Numbered from the stretch's first letter, positions 1,806 to 22,404 are shown. The stretch is DNA of 24,000 bases from Candidatus Woesearchaeota archaeon (GCA_964575515.1 CAZNQS010000006.1:3752-27751), one strand, 5' to 3'. Numbers and translations are program-made. Notes: generated by a model not told the origin, from the sequence alone.

Positions 1806-2555
1806 CTAAACCTTATTTTCTCTCTTTATGAATTTATAGATAAGAGAAATCGTATTTTCTAGGTTTTCATGAGAATGTTCAATCCAATTTATATTTGGAA
1901 CATCTAAGAATTTTCTTAAAGTTGAATACATTGCCTCCAGCATACCGACTATGATTTTATCTTTTGCTGCTTTCTCATCTATTTTTCCTTCTAATAGTTC
2001 AAGAACAGGTAAAATAATGACTCCCTTCCTCATAGGATAAGAATATCTATAACTTTTATCTAAGGCCCTCTCTACTTCGGATGTTAATCCTTCTTCAAAT
2101 AATTGATCTATTCTTTTTTCTATTTTTGTATGCACATTATAATTGCGAGGAAATCTTAAACCGACAAATGGACCGTATAGAGGTTCTTTAGAGAGTTTAT
2201 TTAGATCCATTAAAGCCTTCGTATATCCATAAGAACAGCCTTCTATAATAGGAAGTCTGTTTCTTGCCAAAATCTTTGGAATTAAAGGATTAACGAGCAA
2301 TAAGTAATCAACTAAAGATAGACTTTCTGCAGCAGGTTTTAATATTTGATATAGATGATGGGGAATTTTATTATAATAAAAAGAATCAGAGAGGCCTGTT
2401 GAAAGTTTAAGATCAGAAAATAAATAAAATTTATCTCCATTTATTACTTCTCCATCTAATCTTTGTGCCAATTCAAAAGCCACTTCCGTCTTTCCAGTTG
2501 TAGTAGGACCCAGAATAACAAGTGCCTTTTTATAATTAGACTTTTTTCTTACCAT
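1806..2555 (-). CDS. Isopentenyltransferase (MiaA/IPT family) core without the tRNA-clamping insertion domain
   Basis: ATG start. P-loop ILGPTTTGKT, then GEVINGDKFY, IPHHLY, LPIIEGCSYGY..AL and a C-terminal helical core (IEKRIDQLFEEGLTSEVERAL ... NINWIE), which follow the MiaA motif order. Only about 12 residues sit where MiaA carries its insertion domain. Confidence 0.6.
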   Translation of the reverse strand: MVRKKSNYKKALVILGPTTTGKTEVAFELAQRLDGEVINGDKFYLFSDLKLSTGLSDSFYYNKIPHHLYQILKPAAESLSLVDYLLLVNPLIPKILARNRLPIIEGCSYGYTKALMDLNKLSKEPLYGPFVGLRFPRNYNVHTKIEKRIDQLFEEGLTSEVERALDKSYRYSYPMRKGVIILPVLELLEGKIDEKAAKDKIIVGMLEAMYSTLRKFLDVPNINWIEHSHENLENTISLIYKFIKRENKV

Positions 2556-2637
2556 GAAAAATCATCTAGAATAAATACTAATAAATATTATGGCGATTAA
2601 ATAAGTTCTTTTTATTTGTAGAATCTATTTCTATAAA

Positions 2638-2709
2638 TGGGTCTAGGAGGAATCGAACCCCCGTCAATCGGTCCGAAGCCGATTATTCTGTCCACTGAAC
2701 TATAGACCC
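2638..2709 (-). tRNA. tRNA-Arg (anticodon UCG), no encoded CCA
   Basis: The reverse complement folds as a cloverleaf. Acceptor GGGUCUA/UAGACCC, D arm GUUC..., anticodon stem AUCGG/CCGAU with loop CU-UCG-GA, T arm GGGGG-UUCGAUU-CCUCC, discriminator A. Confidence 0.9.
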
Positions 2710-2769
2710 AAAATACCTAAATGCTTAGCTTTTTTAACCTTATTGACTATAATAAAATAAATAAAAAAG

Positions 2770-4533: not shown

Positions 4534-5970
4534 TCACTCAAGCATCTCCCTCAATATCTCGCCTGCAATCTTGAAATCAGCCCTCCTGCTTGTCTTTTTC
4601 ATAATCTCTCCCATTAAATAATTAAATGCTCTCTCTCCCCCAGCCCTATAATCCTCGACAGCTTTTTTATTTTTATTTATGACATCCTTGACAACCTTTT
4701 CTAATTCGCCCCTATCTGAAATTCTCTCCTCTTTTTTCCCAAGTTCTCTAATAGAAAAACTCTTTGGATAAAATTGATTTAAAATCTGCTTTCCCTTTAA
4801 AACGCTTATCTTACCACTTTTTACACTATTCAACAATTCAACAAAATGCTCAACTTTCAAATCAACTCTGCTCAAACTAGTTTTATTATAATTCAAAAAT
4901 CTCAATAATTCAACTGTAATCCATGGCAACGCAAACTTGGCGTCAATTCCTCTCTCAACAACTTTTTCAAAAAATTCAGCTATGTCAATATGCTTTGTCA
5001 AAACCTCCGCATCACTCTTTCCTATCTTATATTTTCTGATAATCTTCTCTAACTTATTTTCAGGTGATTCAGGCAAACTCTCCTTCAATTTTTCAATAAT
5101 TAAAGAATCTAAAACAATATCCTGCAAATCAGGATCTGTGATAAACCTATAATCCTCCTGCTCTTCTTTTCCCCTCATCCTGAAACTCTTTCCCTTCTCT
5201 GCATCAAATCTCCTTGTTTCCCGCTCACTACCCTCTCTAATCTGCCTCTCTAACTCATAATCTATTGCCCTCATTATACTATCAACAGAATTCAAATTTT
5301 TAATCTCAACTCTTTCTGTTTTTCCAGGTAAACCTGAAATTTTCTCTTGTCTCCTTGAAATTTCAGGGCTGGAGAATTTCACATTCTCCAGATTCACGTT
5401 AACATCAACCTTTATTCCAGCATTGCTATCAATACTCCTCAAATAAGCAAGATTATGCAACAAACTCTTAATCCAGTCTGTAACCTCTTCAGACGTCTCA
5501 AAATCAGGCTCTGTAATAATCTCAACTAATGGTAATCCAGACCTATTGTAATCAACACATCCTGTATCTGGCTCCCATGCAGCAGGGTCCTCCTCTAAGT
5601 GTATGCTTCTTATTCTAATCCCATAAAATTTCCCATCCTCTCCAACAGGAACAGCATAAGCCCCAGAAATAGTATTTTGATAGCCCTTGGGCAAATCAGG
5701 CCAATCGTAATGCTTTCTCTGCCATCTCATCTCTTTATTAATCTTGCATCCGAACATTAAACCAATCCTAATTGCTTGCTTAACAGCCTCCTCGTTAGGC
5801 AGCATCGGCTTTGCCCCTGGCTGTCCTGTGCACGTTGGGCAAATATTAATATTCGGCTTTAATCCTCTTTCTCTTGAAGCAATGCATCTACAAAACAATT
5901 TCTCTTTTGTAATAATATAAACATGAATCTCCAATCCTATCATGCCCCTAAGCTCTTGAATTTGTTTCAT
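4534..5970 (-). CDS. gatB: Aspartyl/glutamyl-tRNA(Asn/Gln) amidotransferase subunit B
   Basis: N-terminal IGLEIHVYI ... CPTCTGQPGAKPMLPNEEAV cradle-domain motifs and C-terminal YqeY-like tail (AFNYLMGEIMKKTSRRAD). The 478-aa length fits GatB rather than GatE. Confidence 0.9.
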   Translation of the reverse strand: MKQIQELRGMIGLEIHVYIITKEKLFCRCIASRERGLKPNINICPTCTGQPGAKPMLPNEEAVKQAIRIGLMFGCKINKEMRWQRKHYDWPDLPKGYQNTISGAYAVPVGEDGKFYGIRIRSIHLEEDPAAWEPDTGCVDYNRSGLPLVEIITEPDFETSEEVTDWIKSLLHNLAYLRSIDSNAGIKVDVNVNLENVKFSSPEISRRQEKISGLPGKTERVEIKNLNSVDSIMRAIDYELERQIREGSERETRRFDAEKGKSFRMRGKEEQEDYRFITDPDLQDIVLDSLIIEKLKESLPESPENKLEKIIRKYKIGKSDAEVLTKHIDIAEFFEKVVERGIDAKFALPWITVELLRFLNYNKTSLSRVDLKVEHFVELLNSVKSGKISVLKGKQILNQFYPKSFSIRELGKKEERISDRGELEKVVKDVINKNKKAVEDYRAGGERAFNYLMGEIMKKTSRRADFKIAGEILREMLE

Positions 5971-6032: not shown

Positions 6033-6329
6033 CTATCGAGAGACTAAACCGTCTAAATAACTTTCATTTTCCTTAAGTATTCTAAAATCATTTGCCGAAA
6101 AATGATGAATATGTCTTTCTTTTGTCGCAAGCCCCCCTTTAAATTTACGATAGCCCATCCTACACTCTCTGCACTCTTTCAAATGCCGATGAGTTTTCAA
6201 AAGAGTTTCTTTAGTTTCAGTTTCCATCTCACAATACTCACATTTAGAAAGCTTAATTAAATAATCCATCATATTTATAGCCCTATTATGATCACAAGCC
6301 TCAAAACTTAACCATTCGTCCTGTTTCAT
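6033..6329 (-). CDS. Small C-x36-H-x3-C-x2-C protein, paralog 1 (ZAS/zf-HC2-like ligand pattern)
   Basis: 98 aa, ATG start. C12, H49, C53 and C56 plus the C-terminal FRILKENESYLDGLV tail are shared with ORFs 8644..8940 and 8999..9271. An A/T-rich TTTTTTATAT box lies about 25 nt upstream of the ATG. Confidence 0.6.
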   Translation of the reverse strand: MKQDEWLSFEACDHNRAINMMDYLIKLSKCEYCEMETETKETLLKTHRHLKECRECRMGYRKFKGGLATKERHIHHFSANDFRILKENESYLDGLVSR

Positions 6330-6363
6330 AATAAATTAAAACTAATGAGATATAAAAAAGTTG

Positions 6364-7023
6364 CTAAATTTTCATTTTTGCCTTGTCCCTAACTTGTTTC
6401 TTGAATAACTTCCAGATATTATCGGATATATTTTTAGGAACTACGATAAGTTTGCGATTGATGAGTTTCTCAAGTTTTTCTCCTAAACCCATAATGGCAG
6501 ACTCATTGCCAAATTTGATCTGTTCTTTTGATTCTTCTAGAATAACATTCCAGTCAATTTTACTTCTATTGATAATTGCAACTATATCTTCTAAATCCTT
6601 TTCTCTAGAAGTAACACTTTTCATGATAAGAATATCGTTCGGGTCCGCAACTCTTATGATAAGATTACCAAATTCATGTGTTTGTTTCGCTCGTTCTTTC
6701 ATTGCGTTAGAAAAAGTAGAAGTAATTACTTTGTTCATATACATATCAAAACGGAAATTATCAAATTCGAGCATTAAAGGAGTATTATTCTTCAAACCTT
6801 GCACTAAAATTACATCAGATTCCTTAGCACCTAACTTTCTTAGTGCATCCATAAACTCCTCTCTATCACCTTTTTTGTCAAAAACAAAATCGATGTCTAA
6901 AGTTGAATTTTTGATGCCTCTTAACATCATGGCAGTTCCGCCTATAGCATAAACCTGTATCCTCTTAGGAAGTATCTTTCCTATTGCTATCAATATTGCT
7001 TCTTGTTGTTGTATGTCAATCAT
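6364..7023 (-). CDS. Pol-beta-fold nucleotidyltransferase, AbiEii/DUF6036-like
   Basis: IGGTAMMLRGIKNSTLDIDFVF fits the hG[GS]-x9-13-D-x-D NTase motif in the GGTA...DIDF form seen in AbiEii-type proteins. The later ADPNDILIMKSVTSREKDLEDI resembles the R-x-KD-x-x-D helix of that group. ATGA overlap with the upstream wHTH gene. Confidence 0.6.
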   Translation of the reverse strand: MIDIQQQEAILIAIGKILPKRIQVYAIGGTAMMLRGIKNSTLDIDFVFDKKGDREEFMDALRKLGAKESDVILVQGLKNNTPLMLEFDNFRFDMYMNKVITSTFSNAMKERAKQTHEFGNLIIRVADPNDILIMKSVTSREKDLEDIVAIINRSKIDWNVILEESKEQIKFGNESAIMGLGEKLEKLINRKLIVVPKNISDNIWKLFKKQVRDKAKMKI

Positions 7024-7670
7024 CTGGTATATTCCTCCAAATCAGCACGGTTTAATGGGATATAAATTTTCCATCTTTTTTCAATATCTTTAAAATCATC
7101 TGAAGAAAGACCTCTTATGATATAAATAAAAGGATTAGCCTTTCTTTTTTGTGCCTGATGTAAAAATCTCTTTGGCATTCTCCTTACTTTTCTTACAACT
7201 CTTCTTGCAATCTCATAAAGAGCCACAATCTCCTTTATCAAATCTTCCTTTTTAGCCAACTTATACAATAAACTCCAATCAGATATCTTCCTAAATAAAG
7301 CTAAGGAAGCAATAATGCAACGAACATCCCTTTGTTTTATGGCATAAATAAGCGCCTCCTCATAAGAAAGAACTCTGCCATGTACATAATAGGGGTTAGA
7401 AGGCGCAACTTGAATCCCATGACTTGGGGAAGCCTCATTTATTTTTTCAGTATAGCTTACTCCTTTTTGTTTATTTTTCAGAGATATATTATATAACCTT
7501 TTCTTTCCCGCTCCATAATTGGTCTTTACAAAACCCAGTTTTCTTAATCTGTGAATAACATAAACTGCCTTAGACATATTTATCTTTAGTCTATCTGCGA
7601 AAGTTTCTAAAGTATAGACACCTTGTAGCGACTCCCCCAATCTCTCGTACTTGTTACTTCCCTTTATCAT
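7020..7670 (-). CDS. wHTH regulator, AbiEi-like (putative antitoxin/transcription factor)
   Basis: N-terminal winged-helix-like segment (TLETFADRLKINMSKAVYVIHRLRKLGFVKT) followed by a roughly 130-aa second domain. 4-nt overlap with the downstream NTase, the AbiEi-AbiEii gene order. Confidence 0.5.
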   Translation of the reverse strand: MIKGSNKYERLGESLQGVYTLETFADRLKINMSKAVYVIHRLRKLGFVKTNYGAGKKRLYNISLKNKQKGVSYTEKINEASPSHGIQVAPSNPYYVHGRVLSYEEALIYAIKQRDVRCIIASLALFRKISDWSLLYKLAKKEDLIKEIVALYEIARRVVRKVRRMPKRFLHQAQKRKANPFIYIIRGLSSDDFKDIEKRWKIYIPLNRADLEEYTR

Positions 7671-7749
7671 TATTAAATATATAATAAGTGATATATAAAC
7701 TTTACCATTATTATTTTTATTATTAAATGTATAATTATTAATATATAAA
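7669..7749 (-). promoter_or_regulatory. Two 31-nt imperfect direct repeats (27/31 identical) exactly 50 bp apart at the start of the AbiEi-like gene
   Basis: 7669-7699 ATTATTAAATATATAATAAGTGATATATAAA versus 7719-7749 ATTATTAAATGTATAATTATTAATATATAAA. The first copy overlaps the ATG (7668-7670). Confidence 0.35.
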
Positions 7750-7826
7750 TAAAATTAAAAATACATCAATTAGAAATAATTTTTAAATTAAAATTAAAGA
7801 ACTATAAAAAACTTGTTAAATTCCAA

Positions 7827-8579
7827 TTATGGCCAATTAGCAGTACAAACAGTTAGACCACCACTAATGGTATTAGATAGACCATTACCAACCAAATCAA
7901 CCTTCGAATCCTCAAACAAAATAGTATTAAAAGTTGAACCAATTTCTGCATAGCCTCTGTTTCTCCATCCGCTATCAGTCCCTAATCTAGCATACCTTAC
8001 TCTAACCTCTATATTTCCACTATTAACCCTTGCTTCATGGATCCCCTCATCCACAGTTCCTGCATGTGTTCTACAACTTATAATTGCTCCGTCAGGAACC
8101 CATTTATACCCAACCCAAGCCGCCCCCTTAAGCCCTGTACTTGTTCTTATATCCCCATTTACATCCAATCTTGCCTGAGGAGAAGATGTTCCAACCCCGA
8201 CATTTCCGCCACTTTGCGTAATTCCAGGAACCCATCCACTAACGCCATCGTATGCTGTCCAAGAACCATCAGCATTAGGATTTAGAGCAAATGCTCTTTC
8301 ACCATCTGAACGCATAATCGCTAGTCCTGTAGCTGTATTAGGACGAATTGTAAACTTAGAACCAACAATACCTCCCTCTGTAGGGTCATTTGTTCCAATA
8401 CCCACGCTTCCCTCGACACCTAATCTAGGCAACATCTGATTCCAATCAATCTGATCAATACCATGAAAAACAGATGTATCAACAGCAGCTGCTTTAACAT
8501 AAAAAACAATTCCAAATAATAAAACAACCCCAAGCAAAACAAAAAAATGCCTCTTTTCTATATTAATCTTAATTTCCAT
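7827..8579 (-). CDS. Membrane-anchored/secreted glycine-rich protein with tail-fibre-like GxVGIGT motifs
   Basis: ATG start preceded by a GAGG SD-like element. N-terminal TM/signal anchor (FFVLLGVVLLFGIVFYV). Two copies of the G-[SN]-V-G-[IV]-G-T-x-x-P motif, the second followed by ARLDVNGDIRT. Confidence 0.6.
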   Translation of the reverse strand: MEIKINIEKRHFFVLLGVVLLFGIVFYVKAAAVDTSVFHGIDQIDWNQMLPRLGVEGSVGIGTNDPTEGGIVGSKFTIRPNTATGLAIMRSDGERAFALNPNADGSWTAYDGVSGWVPGITQSGGNVGVGTSSPQARLDVNGDIRTSTGLKGAAWVGYKWVPDGAIISCRTHAGTVDEGIHEARVNSGNIEVRVRYARLGTDSGWRNRGYAEIGSTFNTILFEDSKVDLVGNGLSNTISGGLTVCTANWP

Positions 8580-8643
8580 ATAACCTCTTCTCTACAATTA
8601 TTAAAATAATAATCAAAACTATTTAAACATTACTTTTAACTTT

Positions 8644-8940
8644 TTAAACCAAACTATCTAAATATTTCTCATTCATTTTTAATAAAGCAAATTGTCTCCC
8701 AGAAAATCCGCCTCCTACACTAGCAAATCTCCCTTTAACATAATTCAAACCATTATAACAGACCTTGCACTCCTTAAAATGCCTATGCCATTTAAGAGTC
8801 ACTCTCTTATCCTCATCAGGCAAAAATTCATATTCTCGCTCTGATAAACTAATCAAATAGAGCACGACATATCCTGCTCTATCAAGTGAACAAGCTATAT
8901 TAATTCCCTCCTCAGATTTTTCATCAAATTCACTTACCAT
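8644..8940 (-). CDS. Small C-x36-H-x3-C-x2-C protein, paralog 2
   Basis: The ORF-track start at 8946 is GTG, and the first ATG is at 8940 (98 aa). C17, H54, C58 and C61 and the terminal FALLKMNEKYLDSLV tail align with paralogs 1 and 3. Confidence 0.55.
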   Translation of the reverse strand: MVSEFDEKSEEGINIACSLDRAGYVVLYLISLSEREYEFLPDEDKRVTLKWHRHFKECKVCYNGLNYVKGRFASVGGGFSGRQFALLKMNEKYLDSLV

Positions 8941-8998
8941 ATCCACATCAATTACTCTTTATTTAAAAATATTTATGAAAAACAAAACAATATTTTAT

Positions 8999-9271
8999 TT
9001 AAATCAAGCTATCCAAAACTCTCTCGTTCTCTTTTAATAATCTAAAACTCTCGGGAGTATAAAGCTTAGAAAATATTATATTGGATGCAGCGTCTCTCTT
9101 GGCATCAATGTAATAATTCCTACATCTATCGCAATTTTTAAAATGCTCATACATATCATTAATAAACCTCCTCTCCAGTTCCGATAAATCAGTATAAGTA
9201 GCAGTTGATAAAGTGCCTATATAAAAACAAATATCTAAACCTCTATCTTCAGAACATGCCTCGCTTTCCAT
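8999..9271 (-). CDS. Small C-x36-H-x3-C-x2-C protein, paralog 3
   Basis: The likely start is the internal ATG at 9271 (MESEACSEDRG..., 90 aa), preceded by AAGGAGGGAGAAGAAA. The 50 codons further upstream in the track ORF overlap dys in another frame. C6, H43, C47, C50 and the terminal FRLLKENERVLDSLI tail are present. Confidence 0.6.
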   Translation of the reverse strand: MESEACSEDRGLDICFYIGTLSTATYTDLSELERRFINDMYEHFKNCDRCRNYYIDAKRDAASNIIFSKLYTPESFRLLKENERVLDSLI

Positions 9272-10262
9272 TTTCTTCTCCCTCCTTCGCAAAACTCTCT
9301 GCCACAAGTAGCGGAAATAAAATTGTCGCATCCCCAAATACTTTAACAGAATCTCCCCCAGCCACAATCTTTCCCCAAGAAACAGCCTCATCGGGCAAGG
9401 CTCCTGCATCACTTCCATCATATTCTTGAGAAGTATTTATATAAACGGCATACTCGCAACCATTCCGCAACATATTTGTATTCAGAATAGAATGCTTAAT
9501 TATTCCAGTTCCAAGCAAAATCACTCCGCTCTTCTTTAACTTAAAACTACTATCATTCAATTCTTTTATATCTTCAGTAATATCAATCTTAAAATCAGGC
9601 TTTTTAAATTTGAAAAAATAAATATTATCTCCTAATGCTCCATCAGTCAGAGCAGGACAAAAAATTCTTATTTTATTCTTCCACGCCCAATAGCAAACAC
9701 TTCTCTTGTCATTTATTTTCTCTCCTAATTTCCAGATAAAGTCGCAAACACTCAAAATCTTTTTAGTCCTATCCTGCTCATTCCACAATTCTTCTAAAAT
9801 AGGCTGAATAAATTCTTCAAATTCAACATATCTGTTATTCGGCGCATATACATTTCCTATTCTATTAATCCCTTTTTCCCTCAATTCAGCCCCGTCAGCG
9901 TGAAAATCTCCCAAAACAAAATCCCCGAGGCATTTTATAATATCCTCTTCAATCCCTCCAGCTGTTGTAACAATCACGTTAACTTTTTTATGCTCAACTA
10001 AATATCTAAAAATATCTCTTAATCCAGAGCTTACAAGATTAGACGTGTATCCTAAATAAACAAAAGCCTTATCCTTAATCATCTTATTAGCAATGTCAAT
10101 CGCCTTGGCTAAATGCGATGCCTGAAACCCTGTAGAAGAAAAACTGCGGACAATCTCGTCATAATTCACTCCTTTATTGAAATCATATCCCTTAATCGCA
10201 ATTCCCTCTATTTCCTCGCTCTCTCTAAGCAAATTCTTCTTTGCAATTTCTCCATTATCCAT
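9249..10262 (-). CDS. dys: Deoxyhypusine synthase
   Basis: GYTSNLVSSGLRDIFRYLVEHKKVNVIVTTAGGIEEDIIKC and WGKI...GDATILFPLL are DHS hallmark blocks. The first ATG is at 10262, and the track start at 10274 is GTG. Confidence 0.9.
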   Translation of the reverse strand: MDNGEIAKKNLLRESEEIEGIAIKGYDFNKGVNYDEIVRSFSSTGFQASHLAKAIDIANKMIKDKAFVYLGYTSNLVSSGLRDIFRYLVEHKKVNVIVTTAGGIEEDIIKCLGDFVLGDFHADGAELREKGINRIGNVYAPNNRYVEFEEFIQPILEELWNEQDRTKKILSVCDFIWKLGEKINDKRSVCYWAWKNKIRIFCPALTDGALGDNIYFFKFKKPDFKIDITEDIKELNDSSFKLKKSGVILLGTGIIKHSILNTNMLRNGCEYAVYINTSQEYDGSDAGALPDEAVSWGKIVAGGDSVKVFGDATILFPLLVAESFAKEGEENGKRGMF

Positions 10263-10324
10263 ATCGTGAAGCACTTTTCATGATATATAAATCTTTATTA
10301 AGATTGATAAAAAATAAAAAGGAG

Positions 10325-15842: not shown

Positions 15843-16370
15843 TTACTCAAAAACTATCTTTCGTGTCATATCAATCAAATTTCTGCATTTTTGAGTTAAG
15901 TCTACAATTTTCTCTTTGTTCATAGATATTTTTGCGCTGTAAGTATAATCTTCCCTCATCTCTATAATACTCTCTTTCTTTTCCTGCTCATCTTCCTTAT
16001 ACTTAAACATCTCAATAAACACTTCATCAACATTAATTTTCCCTTCTTCTTTTAGGTATTCTATTAAAGCTATAGTGCAAGTTTGATTTCCTGACTCATA
16101 TCCAAATCTTGCAGCAATAGACAGAAAACAATGATACATTGCATAGAAAAAAGCACTTGCAGACCAATCAGAAAAGCCAGTTTTTACAAAATTAAGAGCT
16201 GCATCAAGATTATGCTCTGCTTTCTTAATATGCTCCCTCGCTTCATTAATATCTGGCTTTATCTTTAGAAGACCGCGGTGTTTTTGTCTTTTTCCTTCTC
16301 TTTTGCACTCTTCAATTTCTTTTTCTGCTTTTTTCAAGCACCATTCAACATGCTTAGATGCTTGTGACAT
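15843..16370 (-). CDS. HEPN domain protein (partner of adjacent MNT)
   Basis: All-helical 175 aa from the ATG at 16370 (MSQASKHVEWCLKKAEKEIEE...). It follows the typical HEPN layout with a late R-x-x-Y segment (MREDYTYS). It overlaps the 3' end of the upstream MNT gene by 17 nt. The start is uncertain, with alternatives at 16388 and 16403. Confidence 0.6.
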   Translation of the reverse strand: MSQASKHVEWCLKKAEKEIEECKREGKRQKHRGLLKIKPDINEAREHIKKAEHNLDAALNFVKTGFSDWSASAFFYAMYHCFLSIAARFGYESGNQTCTIALIEYLKEEGKINVDEVFIEMFKYKEDEQEKKESIIEMREDYTYSAKISMNKEKIVDLTQKCRNLIDMTRKIVFE

Positions 16371-16944
16371 TGCGTATAGCCTCCACATATTTATCCTGTC
16401 CATATAATACTATTGCATCTTTAACAATATTTATAATAGATTTTTGTTTTTCCTGAAGATTTTTTAAGAAATCATCTGTTGTAAGCTCCATTGAATGTAT
16501 TTTTTTTGAAAGGAATTTTTGTCTTTTAATTATAGCTCTGGAGGCTTCTTTATATTCTTCTTTTTCCATAACAATCATTATATCAATATCACGAGCTTTT
16601 TCATAATTTTTTATTGCAGAGCCATATAGCATCACAATCCTCTCTCCCTTAAAGAGCTCCCTAAATTCATCTTTCCAGCGCTTGAAGCTATCGGCTTCAT
16701 TAGCCAGCAGAAAAGCAATCAACTTTCTTATATAATCATCCTCAAGATTTAATTTATAGACAATTGATTTTCCTATTATCCTGTCTTTTAAGATATTTTT
16801 ATTAAGAAGTTTTTTGAGTAATTTCATACTGCCAACCCTGCTTATGCCTAAAAGTTTGCTCAATGAATTTGCATTATAATAATTAGAAAAATCTTTAAAC
16901 AAGATTAGTAATGCTTCTTTTTCCTTTTGTGTTATTGGCACCAT
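16354..16944 (-). CDS. wHTH-fused minimal nucleotidyltransferase (MNT)
   Basis: From the ATG at 16944. N-terminal winged helix (LSKLLGISRVGSMKLLKKLLNKNILKDRI), then the MNT catalytic motif LYGSAIKNYEKARDIDIMIV (G-S-x10-D-x-D). Confidence 0.7.
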   Translation of the reverse strand: MVPITQKEKEALLILFKDFSNYYNANSLSKLLGISRVGSMKLLKKLLNKNILKDRIIGKSIVYKLNLEDDYIRKLIAFLLANEADSFKRWKDEFRELFKGERIVMLYGSAIKNYEKARDIDIMIVMEKEEYKEASRAIIKRQKFLSKKIHSMELTTDDFLKNLQEKQKSIINIVKDAIVLYGQDKYVEAIRNVTSI

Positions 16945-16963
16945 TTTCCTATGTAAACTAATT

Positions 16964-16995
16964 CTTACTATATAGTAACTTAAACTTACTATATA
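16964..16995 (-). promoter_or_regulatory. Two perfect 11-nt direct repeats (CTTACTATATA) 21 bp apart, the proximal one inside a 14-bp perfect palindrome, upstream of the wHTH-MNT gene
   Basis: 16964-16974 and 16985-16995 are identical. 16965-16978 TTACTATATAGTAA is self-complementary. The repeats lie 20-51 nt upstream of the ATG at 16944 and include TATA-like sequence. Confidence 0.4.
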
Positions 16996-17108
16996 AATCT
17001 TCTGCTCTTGAATTGCATTCATTTTTCATTTTTAGTTTGCAATTTTCCTCCATACTTTATAAATAATTCAATAATAATATTTATAACATCTCCCAGCCAT
17101 AAATACTT

Positions 17109-20660: not shown

Positions 20661-21845
20661 TTACAATTCAGTAATAGGAATAAAGCCTTTTTCTTTGTTA
20701 AATTTCTTTGTAATGACATAATTTTCTTTTATTTTTAGATCTTTAGAAACTCTTGCTAATAAATCCTTATCTTTTTTTGTGCCGGTTTCCTTAACTTCTA
20801 AAGCTATTTTTTGTTTTTTAAATATAAAATCAATTTCAATTCCAGAACGTCTCTGATAATAATTTACTTTGTCTAATTTTTTAATGGTATTAAATACAGA
20901 ATTTTCTAAAAGAACACCGAAAGAAACTTGGGAGAGATTGTTTAAAATTCCTGTATCACATATATAAACTTTTTTTGTACCACTGACCTCTCTATCCTTG
21001 CTGCGAGTAAAAGGAGAAATAAGATTAATAAAATAAGTCGCTTCTAAAAAAGAGAGATAAGAATAAACAGTTTGTCTAGTTACTCCGAGTTCAGAAGAAA
21101 TTTTATCAATATGTAATTTAGAGCCAGCTCTTTGCATAAGCAAAAGAATAAAGTCTCTTAAAATATTTAAATTCTTAAAATCAGACAAAGATTTTATATC
21201 CTTTTCAAAATAGGATTTAAAAATATCATCAAGAAAGGCTTTTTTTTCTTCAATTGTTGTTGCGAGCACAACCTGAGGGAATCCGCCATATTTGATATAT
21301 TCTTCATAAAATTTTATAGTTATCTCATATAAAACTTCGTTTTTTTTCTTTTCTTTTTCTCTGAAAGGAATATAAAATTTTTTAGTTTTTCCTTTAAAAA
21401 ATAAAAATTCTTCAAAATCTAAAGGAAATAATTCAAATACGATTTTTCTGCCAGCCAAACTCTCCGGAAATAGATTTTTGAGATAGAAACTACTTGAGCC
21501 AGTTAAGAAAAATTGGATGTTATAGTGATCATATAAATATTTAATTGGCCTAATAATTTCAGGCATTGCTTGTATTTCATCTAAGAAAATATAGGCCCTT
21601 TCTGACTTTGTAATGCTATAATTTTCTAAGTTTAAAAAGATATTATTATAATCTTTTTCATCAAAGAGCTTTTGCACAATGGGATTCTCAATATCTAAAA
21701 ATACCTTATTCTTACTTTCTATTTCTTCAAAGAGCATTTTAAATAAAGTGGTTTTTCCGACTCTTCTCATTCCAGTAACCACTATTATGGCTTTTTTATC
21801 AACCCATCTCCTTAACTCTTTAAGCAGTTTTCTTTCATAAAACAT
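20661..21845 (-). CDS. AAA_14/DUF4143-type ATPase
   Basis: Walker A VVTGMRRVGKTTL, Walker B IFLDEIQ, and a C-terminal wHTH-like and restriction-fold-like tail typical of this archaeal ATPase family. The first ATG is at 21845, and the track start at 21860 is TTG. Confidence 0.8.
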   Translation of the reverse strand: MFYERKLLKELRRWVDKKAIIVVTGMRRVGKTTLFKMLFEEIESKNKVFLDIENPIVQKLFDEKDYNNIFLNLENYSITKSERAYIFLDEIQAMPEIIRPIKYLYDHYNIQFFLTGSSSFYLKNLFPESLAGRKIVFELFPLDFEEFLFFKGKTKKFYIPFREKEKKKNEVLYEITIKFYEEYIKYGGFPQVVLATTIEEKKAFLDDIFKSYFEKDIKSLSDFKNLNILRDFILLLMQRAGSKLHIDKISSELGVTRQTVYSYLSFLEATYFINLISPFTRSKDREVSGTKKVYICDTGILNNLSQVSFGVLLENSVFNTIKKLDKVNYYQRRSGIEIDFIFKKQKIALEVKETGTKKDKDLLARVSKDLKIKENYVITKKFNKEKGFIPITEL

Positions 21846-22130
21846 TTTAATTTTGTCCAATGTAAATTTACATAATTATTAGAACAATGTATGTTTATAA
21901 ATTTTTGGTTTGTTTGATTAAAAAAACTCGGGCCCTCAAACTCTGATTTTTTGCCTTCGGCATCTTGCACTAAAAATCAATCCCTATTGAAAGAAACTAA
22001 CAACAATTAAAAGGTTACGCTCGGTTGCACCTCACTCCACCCAAATAGTTCGCTTCACTCACGACTTCTCTTAATCACATATAGAGTACAATCCTTGGAA
22101 TTCACGCTCTTCCAAAAAAGTTATAGATAA

Positions 22131-22162: not shown

Positions 22163-22238
22163 GGCCCCGTAGCTCAGCCTGGATTAGAGCACTTGCCTTC
22201 TAAGCAAGGGGTCGCAGGTTCAAATCCTGTCGGGGTCA
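22163..22238 (+). tRNA. tRNA-Arg (anticodon UCU), no encoded CCA
   Basis: Acceptor GGCCCCG/CGGGGUC, D arm GCUC-AGCCUGGAUUA-GAGC, anticodon stem CUUGC/GCAAG with loop CU-UCU-AA, T arm GCAGG-UUCAAAU-CCUGU, discriminator A. Confidence 0.9.
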
Positions 22239-22331: not shown

Positions 22332-22404
22332 GCGCACGTGGCACAGTGGTTACTGCAGTCGGCTGCAGCCCGACTTTTCCCAGGTTCAATTCCTGGCGTG
22401 CGCT
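22332..22404 (+). tRNA. tRNA-Cys (anticodon GCA), no encoded CCA
   Basis: Acceptor GCGCACG/CGUGCGC, anticodon stem GUCGG/CCGAC with loop CU-GCA-GC, T arm CCAGG-UUCAAUU-CCUGG, and discriminator U73, the known tRNA-Cys identity element. Confidence 0.9.

Follow-up and report, generated by a model that had tools for sequence, protein, structure and literature searches.

Three paralogous genes at the locus

The genes studied here lie in a 24,000-nucleotide stretch of DNA from a Candidatus Woesearchaeota archaeon (GCA_964575515.1 CAZNQS010000006.1:3752-27751), which is called the window, and encode three members of a family of small proteins with a shared Cys/His pattern. A first-pass annotation had described them as three open reading frames (ORFs) on the minus strand, and the ORF list confirmed all of the coordinates and residues. 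P1 (6033..6329, minus strand) has 98 residues, with C12, H49, C53 and C56 and the helix-4 motif FRILKENESYLDGL. P2 (8644..8940, minus strand) also has 98 residues when it is read from the ATG at 8940, with C17, H54, C58 and C61, and an alternative GTG start at 8946 would give 100 residues. P3 (8999..9271, minus strand) has 90 residues from the ATG at 9271, with C6, H43, C47 and C50. The open frame of P3 extends to 9421, within the deoxyhypusine synthase gene dys (9249..10274, minus strand; Pfam DS, E = 2e-114), which lies upstream of P3 and whose 3' end overlaps the P3 start by 23 nt.

The MAFFT alignment of P1, P2 and P3 has 22 invariant columns, which include the four ligand candidates, and the motif H-x3-C-x2-C is seen in all three proteins. 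In the tail, the invariant columns include F82, L85, K86, N88, E89, L92, D93 and L95 (P1 numbering). The pairwise BLASTP E-values are 9e-17 (P1-P2), 2e-10 (P1-P3) and 2e-9 (P2-P3). Because of these values, we consider that P1, P2 and P3 are, as judged by sequence, true paralogs and not look-alikes, and the earlier description of them as diverged paralogs is confirmed. Repeats in the DNA coincide with both conserved blocks, namely the H-x3-C codons (repeat family D4) and the tail codons (D1). Against the family profile, a hidden Markov model (HMM), P1, P2 and P3 score 97.8, 84.5 and 95.4 bits, respectively.

P1 is 56% identical to P0006, the family member directly after dys in the comparison locus L006 (such loci are cited by their L numbers), and 44% identical to P2. 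P2 is 41% identical to P0006 and was placed in the P1-type subgroup. Locus L001 is otherwise collinear with the window but lacks P2, and there the P3 ortholog is followed directly by a gene for a secreted protein. The ratio of nonsynonymous to synonymous substitution rates between P3 and this ortholog is 0.38, which speaks for a real gene.

The three genes carry different putative expression signals. A TATA-like box, TTTTTTATAT (6350..6359, minus strand), lies at -30 to -21 of the P1 ATG, and another, ATTTTTAAATAA (8959..8970, minus strand), at -30 to -19 of the P2 ATG; both are putative promoter elements. The P3 ATG is preceded at -16 to -9 by the Shine-Dalgarno-like element AAGGAGGG (9280..9287, minus strand), which lies within the dys coding region. 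This suggests that P1 is transcribed from a promoter of its own as a leaderless mRNA, and that P3 is translationally coupled to dys, because the GGAGG-like element lies inside the 3' end of dys. An A/T box at about -27 also stands before P2 and before the GatB, winged helix-turn-helix (wHTH) and secreted-protein genes of the window, as well as before most family genes in L010, L012, L013, L096 and L099. A box about 27 nt before the ATG is the pattern expected of archaeal leaderless transcripts. The post-dys orthologs in L001 and L006 likewise have a GGAGG or GAGG element ahead of their starts. Across the window, TATA-like boxes are found about 26-30 nt ahead of the starts at 5970, 6329, 7670, 8579 and 8940, with no space for a leader, which points to leaderless mRNAs as the norm in this genome.

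Extent and conservation of the family

An exhaustive HMMER search with a five-sequence profile against 1.84 billion representatives recovered 56 proteins at E <= 1e-3, 28 of them at E <= 1e-10, corresponding to about 56 clusters at 50% identity. Nearly all of the 56 representatives are 74-122 residues long. A word-indexed search found only two relatives outside the window. Scans with family profiles found nothing in the genome-contig collection and nothing in viral contigs, and the metagenome-contig scan gave only two short contigs. All named sources, without exception, are metagenome-assembled genomes of Candidatus Pacearchaeota, Woesearchaeota or "Nanoarchaeota archaeon". The named members come from groundwater (Hainich and others) and Tara marine samples, and all are annotated as hypothetical.

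Conservation was counted in a 57-sequence family alignment with P1 numbering. C53 and C56 are present in 57/57 sequences and H49 in 55/57, and the N-terminal Cys is kept in all 51 sequences that reach its column; the remaining six are mostly short, and their gene calls are probably truncated. In helix 4, N88 is kept in 56/56 sequences, E89 in 52 and L92 in 51. Y23, Y32, Y60, K64, F77 and F82 are also strongly conserved. In one member, P0043, the N-terminal Cys and the His have been lost together, which would be expected of residues that belong to one site. The claim that the four Cys/His positions and the tail are under selection therefore extends beyond this genome: the outside homologs retain both the Cys/His positions and the helix-4 motif. 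Two details of the earlier description hold in part. A Cys-to-His spacing of exactly 36 residues is true of P1, P2 and P3, but family-wide it is only the mode (33/51 sequences; range 33-43). Similarly, the tail motif is conserved, but it is not always at the extreme C-terminus, as 6 to 23 residues follow N88 across the family.

Paralogs recur in the family, with three in the window and a tandem pair in L010. The latter (1552-1833 and 1877-2152, plus strand) lie on a distant Nanoarchaeota contig, are 31% identical to each other, and each has its own TTTAAATA box at about -29.

Neither the paralogs nor the 57 members had a significant match in Pfam, NCBIfam, PHROG or PADLOC. Weak Pfam matches to ARMET_N, zf-DBF, DUF5382 and SH2_2 were scattered among single members and were regarded as noise, and a similarity of the tail to SpoIISB (FKENERLID, E = 0.8) was treated as chance. 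As had been claimed for archaeal systems, the family is, on the evidence of these searches, not assignable to any characterised system. It is a previously undescribed family, restricted to DPANN archaea, whose members are small soluble proteins about 95 residues long with four predicted helices.

Predicted structure

AlphaFold2 run with the 57-sequence alignment gave a model with a predicted local distance difference test (pLDDT) score of 90.3 and a predicted template modelling score of 0.80, with helices at 14-29, 37-52, 54-69 and 79-96. With five sequences, the pLDDT was 79.3. In the model, C12 immediately precedes helix 1 and H49 belongs to the final turn of helix 2, while C53 occupies the single-residue turn between helices 2 and 3, and C56 the opening turn of helix 3. 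This topology would place all of the ligand positions at the same end of an up-down-up bundle.

The conserved tail had been proposed to be a docking peptide. The model does not support this, since the tail is predicted as helix 4 of the folded domain (pLDDT 94-97), a core helix and not a free peptide. Helix 4 has a hydrophobic stripe of F82, L85, L92 and L95/L96, with E89 on the same face, and a buried layer of polar residues may be made up of N88 and E89 together with Y23, H/Y47 and Y60. Across the family, the helix-4 motif reads F-x2-L-[KR]-E-N-E-x2-L-[DE].

Similarity to zinc-binding anti-sigma factors

The first-pass annotation had recognised in the Cys/His pattern the ligand pattern of bacterial zinc-binding anti-sigma (ZAS) domains. 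In the definition of these domains, the fourth ligand (Cys or His) lies 23-26 residues N-terminal to the motif, and ZAS genes are usually recognised by their position downstream of their sigma gene (Rajasekar et al. 2016, PMC4960319). The CHCC form is present in the family, and RsiW (5wuq_C) was the first match in the PDB sequence profile search with two different family profiles (E = 0.03); the alignment covers H-L-x2-C-x2-C and the following helix. The divergence among ZAS proteins is itself large, with E = 0.48 between RsiW and RsrA.

The family was compared by hhalign with a ZAS profile of nine sequences, which was validated against the PDB; the profile found RsiW, RsrA, ChrR and RslA at 1e-20 to 1e-34 and the independent DdvA at 4e-5. 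The runs were made with -M first, and scores obtained with -M 50, at E = 1e-27 to 1e-31 and in one case from only one aligned column, were discarded as artefacts. The family matched the ZAS profile with a probability of 83% and a score of 30.4, compared with 8.3 +/- 1.7 (maximum 12.9) for 100 column-shuffled controls. When the H, C and C columns were masked in both profiles, the score fell to 10.1, within the shuffle range. The resemblance in sequence to ZAS is therefore that of the motif alone, and the part of the earlier proposal that implied relatedness comes down to three ligand columns.

The other tests point in the same direction. The upstream Cys is conserved, yet its spacing of 36 (33-43) is beyond the 23-26 of ZAS. 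The Pfam model zf-HC2 (PF13490), which had been named as a check, matched 0/57 members even at E <= 1. Because the spacing, the adjacency to a sigma gene, the Pfam model and similarity beyond the motif are all lacking, the family is not filed as ZAS.

Proposed working of the family

We tentatively favour the explanation that the family consists of zinc-stabilised, possibly thiol-sensitive helical proteins that bind a partner stoichiometrically, though our doubt slightly outweighs our confidence in it. The metal would keep the three-helix unit of the bundle in a binding-competent shape, and helix 4 is predicted to pack onto this unit. By analogy with CHCC-type ZAS such as RsrA, the protein would act as a stoichiometric protein-binding modulator, and loss of zinc or oxidation of the thiols would remodel the bundle, so that the partner is released. 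Zinc binding, partner binding and any redox switching are what we infer here. The fast divergence outside the motifs and the repeated duplication of the family favour a protein over a nucleic acid as the partner, and suggest that the partner also varies.

Several results weigh against this explanation. The convergence of the four side chains is argued from topology in the model and not from measured distances. The CxxC at a helix N-terminus could be a redox-active disulfide instead. No conserved gene neighbour pointing to a partner was found at the family loci examined. Foldseek searches of the PDB (with both models) and of BFVD gave no match at E <= 0.001 and listed no anti-sigma chain, and the loss of profile similarity to ZAS after masking of the ligand columns belongs here as well.

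Nucleic-acid binding as an alternative

The family might instead be a small zinc-finger-like regulator that binds DNA or RNA, with a role like that of Brz or the C(P)XCG micro-proteins. Archaea are known to have small regulatory proteins with zinc motifs (PMC2253796 and PMC10716476), many genes of the family are solitary and carry a promoter-like box of their own, and some members are basic, with an isoelectric point (pI) of up to 9.6. However, the median pI is 5.7, the net charge runs from -14 to +9, and P3 has a pI of 4.8. This mostly acidic and highly variable charge, with no conserved basic surface, argues against the binding of nucleic acids. The predicted fold is all-helical with an interhelical metal site, and is not a zinc ribbon or a classical finger, and no significant match to a Pfam zinc-finger or helix-turn-helix (HTH) model was found. 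We therefore consider this alternative unlikely.

A possible missing anti-sigma factor

The first-pass annotation had stated that archaea have no sigma factors, so that a ZAS-like protein would need another partner. The literature and our own loci contradict this. Castelle et al. (2021, PMC8204110) reported that sigma-70-family genes are "particularly prevalent in Woesearchaeota", and did not identify any candidate anti-sigma factor. We searched with an HMM for sigma factors of the extracytoplasmic function (ECF) type in 80 dys loci, which are from GTDB species representatives of related Pace-, Woese- and Nanoarchaeota genomes. ORFs were found in L049 (5019-5660, minus strand) and L073 (4986-5576, minus strand), both after an archaeal dys and before ftsZ, and in L048 (4968-5519, minus strand), between dys and ftsZ. 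All three have Sigma70_r2 and r4 above the Pfam cut-offs. The L048 copy is split into two ORFs and may be a pseudogene or a frameshift. No anti-sigma-like gene adjoins the sigma ORFs of these three loci; any anti-sigma factor would therefore be encoded elsewhere in those genomes.

It follows that the family could be a very diverged ZAS, the missing anti-sigma factor for the ECF-type sigma factors of Woesearchaeota and Pacearchaeota, which would hold sigma by helices 1-3 together with helix 4 and free it upon zinc loss or thiol oxidation. The CHCC motif with its ligands at the predicted ZAS positions, RsiW as top match among solved structures, the hhalign probability, the RsrA-like size and the presence of sigma genes in DPANN archaea are consistent with this. 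Against it, no sigma-like ORF was detected with the Sigma70 Pfam models or the sigma HMM in about 190 kb around about 14 independent family loci (the searches covered the window, L001-L013, L015 and L094-L099, with L048, L049 and L073 as positive controls of the sigma HMM), and no family member lies within the three sigma loci. Since the two sets of loci are free of each other, classical operon coupling, by which ZAS genes are normally identified, is excluded. The Cys-to-His spacing, the failure of zf-HC2, the masked profiles and the Foldseek searches also speak against a ZAS. We regard this assignment as improbable. If it were true, the family would represent a CHCC ZAS domain in a stretched form, whose gene lies apart from that of its sigma factor, and DPANN archaea would own a complete sigma/anti-sigma switch beside the TBP/TFB machinery, possibly responsive to redox or zinc.

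A redox-active dithiol as an alternative

The CxxC might also be a redox-active dithiol, and the family a thiol-disulfide oxidoreductase or sensor, perhaps a flavin-dependent sulfhydryl oxidase like Erv/ALR, and not a metal protein. The CxxC stands at the N-terminus of helix 3 in a helical bundle of about 100 residues, and the conserved aromatic residues Y23, Y32, Y60, F77 and F82 could line a cofactor pocket. The PDB sequence search gave weak Erv1 matches (E = 0.43-0.56), and sulfhydryl oxidases were among the noise-level Foldseek matches (3t59_C; Pithovirus entries). All of these matches are at chance level (sequence E > 0.4; Foldseek E 7-8), and there is no Erv/ALR match in Pfam, so an identity with Erv/ALR was rejected. 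The co-conserved His four residues before the CxxC and the distant Cys are characteristic of a tetrahedral metal site and not of a dithiol centre. Most of the hosts come from anoxic groundwater, in which an oxidase that depends on O2 would presumably be out of place. On this evidence, a dithiol enzyme or sensor is quite improbable.

Genomic context

The positions of P3 after dys and of P1 after an AbiE-like pair had been taken as two informative operon contexts. Our results do not support this. In the closest relatives (L006, L008 and L015), the gene order is DHH, acylphosphatase-UPPS, dys, small protein, gatB. P3 orthologs follow dys directly in L001-L004, L005, L008/L014 and L015, and in L006 the slot holds P0006, which is of the P1 type and not of the P3 type. 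Because the genomes with the dys link also share all of the flanking genes, the link is inherited synteny within one lineage. Only 2 of the 80 dys loci have a family member after dys; elsewhere, the slot is filled by gatB directly, a thioredoxin-like ORF, a conserved ORF of about 120 residues, a sigma gene or others. The dys linkage was therefore rejected as a functional clue. Distant members adjoin eIF1A, ProRS, LysRS, topA, RNase HII and PRPP synthetase genes and are usually single genes. No neighbour family is common to the distant loci, and the small neighbours without Pfam identity (146 residues in L011; 95 and 183 in L013; 193 in L012; 91 and 103 in L010) are not shared.

Within the dys lineage, the small protein is 29-56% identical between genomes, versus 70-87% for the flanking housekeeping genes. 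The comparison of the window with L001 is an exception, in which P3 (8999-9271 against 1267-1539) is 89% and dys 76% identical at the amino-acid level. The nucleotide identity of P3 is 88-95% per 60-nt window, and the similarity breaks off sharply at the stop codon of P3, the point at which the additional paralog P2 is found in the window. Such a pattern may reflect recombination or gene exchange.

The AbiE-like pair consists of a DUF6036/AbiEii-like nucleotidyltransferase (NTase) of 219 residues (6364-7023; DUF6036 E = 7e-10; PADLOC AbiEii E = 2e-5) and a wHTH protein of 216 residues (7020-7670) with only weak wHTH matches. A 51-nt direct repeat (family D2; 78% identity, spacing 1452 nt) brackets the pair. 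Copy 1 (6332..6382) covers the end of the NTase gene together with the putative promoter region of P1, and copy 2 (7784..7834) lies at the end of the secreted-protein gene; each copy starts at the final codons of the gene before it and includes the TATA-like box that is found ahead of P1. Because these repeats bracket the pair, the wHTH and NTase cassette looks inserted between the secreted-protein gene and P1, and the position of P1 after it is probably incidental. The AbiEii genes in L008 and L096 are 8-9 kb away from the family genes, and only P1 adjoins such a pair. A linkage of the family to AbiE was rejected, as the repeats flank the pair.

Although P3 or its orthologs overlap dys or lie within 1 nt of it in the window, L001, L005, L006, L008 and L015, and P1 lies 34 nt downstream of the NTase gene, the idea that the family serves these neighbours, as an accessory of deoxyhypusine synthase and aIF5A modification (P3) or as a third component of the AbiE-like module (P1), is very improbable in view of the rarity and inherited nature of the dys link, the unrelated neighbours of distant members, the apparent insertion of the pair, the separate TATA-like box of P1 and the absence of PADLOC matches for the small proteins. 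That family genes stand after dys and after the AbiE-like pair is probably an accident of the variable dys-gatB slot, and not a functional link.

Other features of the window and of the dys loci

The secreted-protein gene (7827-8579, minus strand) encodes 250 residues with the N-terminal signal or anchor MEIKINIEKRHFF... It shares only about the first 90 residues with its counterpart at the same position in L001 (1604-2053, plus strand), and it has weak matches to phage tail-fibre PHROG entries (E = 1.6e-4). Its C-terminal part appears to be a variable surface domain. An overlapping HEPN and minimal nucleotidyltransferase gene pair (15843-16403 and 16354-17022, both minus strand) forms a second toxin-antitoxin-like module in the window, and its nucleotidyltransferase matches the PADLOC candidate system PDC-M05A (E = 2e-14). 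An AAA_14/DUF4143 ATPase with an HTH (20661-21860, minus strand) matches the PADLOC candidate defence protein PDC-S01 (E = 3e-66). The tRNA genes of the window are Arg-TCG (2637-2710, minus strand), Arg-TCT (22163-22238, plus strand) and Cys-GCA (22332-22404, plus strand).

The conserved ORF of about 120 residues after dys is found in several related genomes, on the plus strand of L023 (5022-5393), L040 (4601-4969), L044 (1386-1766) and L045 (5046-5414), with the motif ...FIETSSITVHLD...FVDIFSCK.FD. It may resemble pyruvoyl S-adenosylmethionine decarboxylase, which would suit the neighbourhood of a spermidine-using enzyme. Loci L072 and L087 are labelled "Patescibacteria group bacterium", yet they carry an archaeal-type dys that is 62-64% identical to that of the window; they are probably mis-binned or mislabelled DPANN contigs.

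Significance and comparison with known systems

DPANN archaea have small genomes in which many genes are unexplained. A conserved, multi-copy and fast-evolving family with a clear metal-site signature is a tractable piece of this dark matter. The family makes the question of regulators for the archaeal sigma-70-family genes (PMC8204110) testable, as it is the only candidate with an anti-sigma-like motif for those sigma factors. Even without a link to sigma, it would define a new interhelical CHCC zinc module, if the predicted structure is correct.

Among known systems, the family resembles Brz of H. salinarum and HVO_0758 of Haloferax in being a small cytoplasmic archaeal protein that has one putative zinc site and is probably regulatory, often encoded by a single gene. 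In contrast, Brz and the C(P)XCG micro-proteins use paired CPXCG knuckles in zinc-ribbon-like folds and mostly have fewer than 70 residues, whereas the family is all-helical with a predicted CHCC interhelical site and has no sequence match to them. With Erv/ALR, the family shares the size of the helical bundle, the place of the CxxC and the conserved aromatic residues, but it has no flavin-binding motif, and its His and distant Cys point to a metal site.

The comparison with ZAS goes further. In RsrA, the ligands have been described as lying where helix 1 begins, where helix 2 ends, in the 2-3 turn and where helix 3 begins (PMC4960319). The family shares with CHCC ZAS such as RsrA and RsiW the H-x3-C-x2-C motif and an upstream Cys as the likely fourth ligand, and its model has four helices with the predicted ligands at these same positions. 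It also has in common with RsrA a length of about 100 residues, a single domain and its soluble nature. The differences are also clear. Helices 1 and 2 have 13 and 11 residues in RsrA (PMC4960319), whereas they are longer in the family (16 and 16 residues) and the loop is slightly longer, which accounts for the approximately 10 extra residues between Cys and His. The family is not beside a sigma gene at the loci examined, its hosts are DPANN archaea, and it has its own conserved helix-4 motif, which ZAS proteins lack. A ZAS-like working, that of a metal-stapled bundle that binds a partner, is nevertheless the best available analogy for the family.

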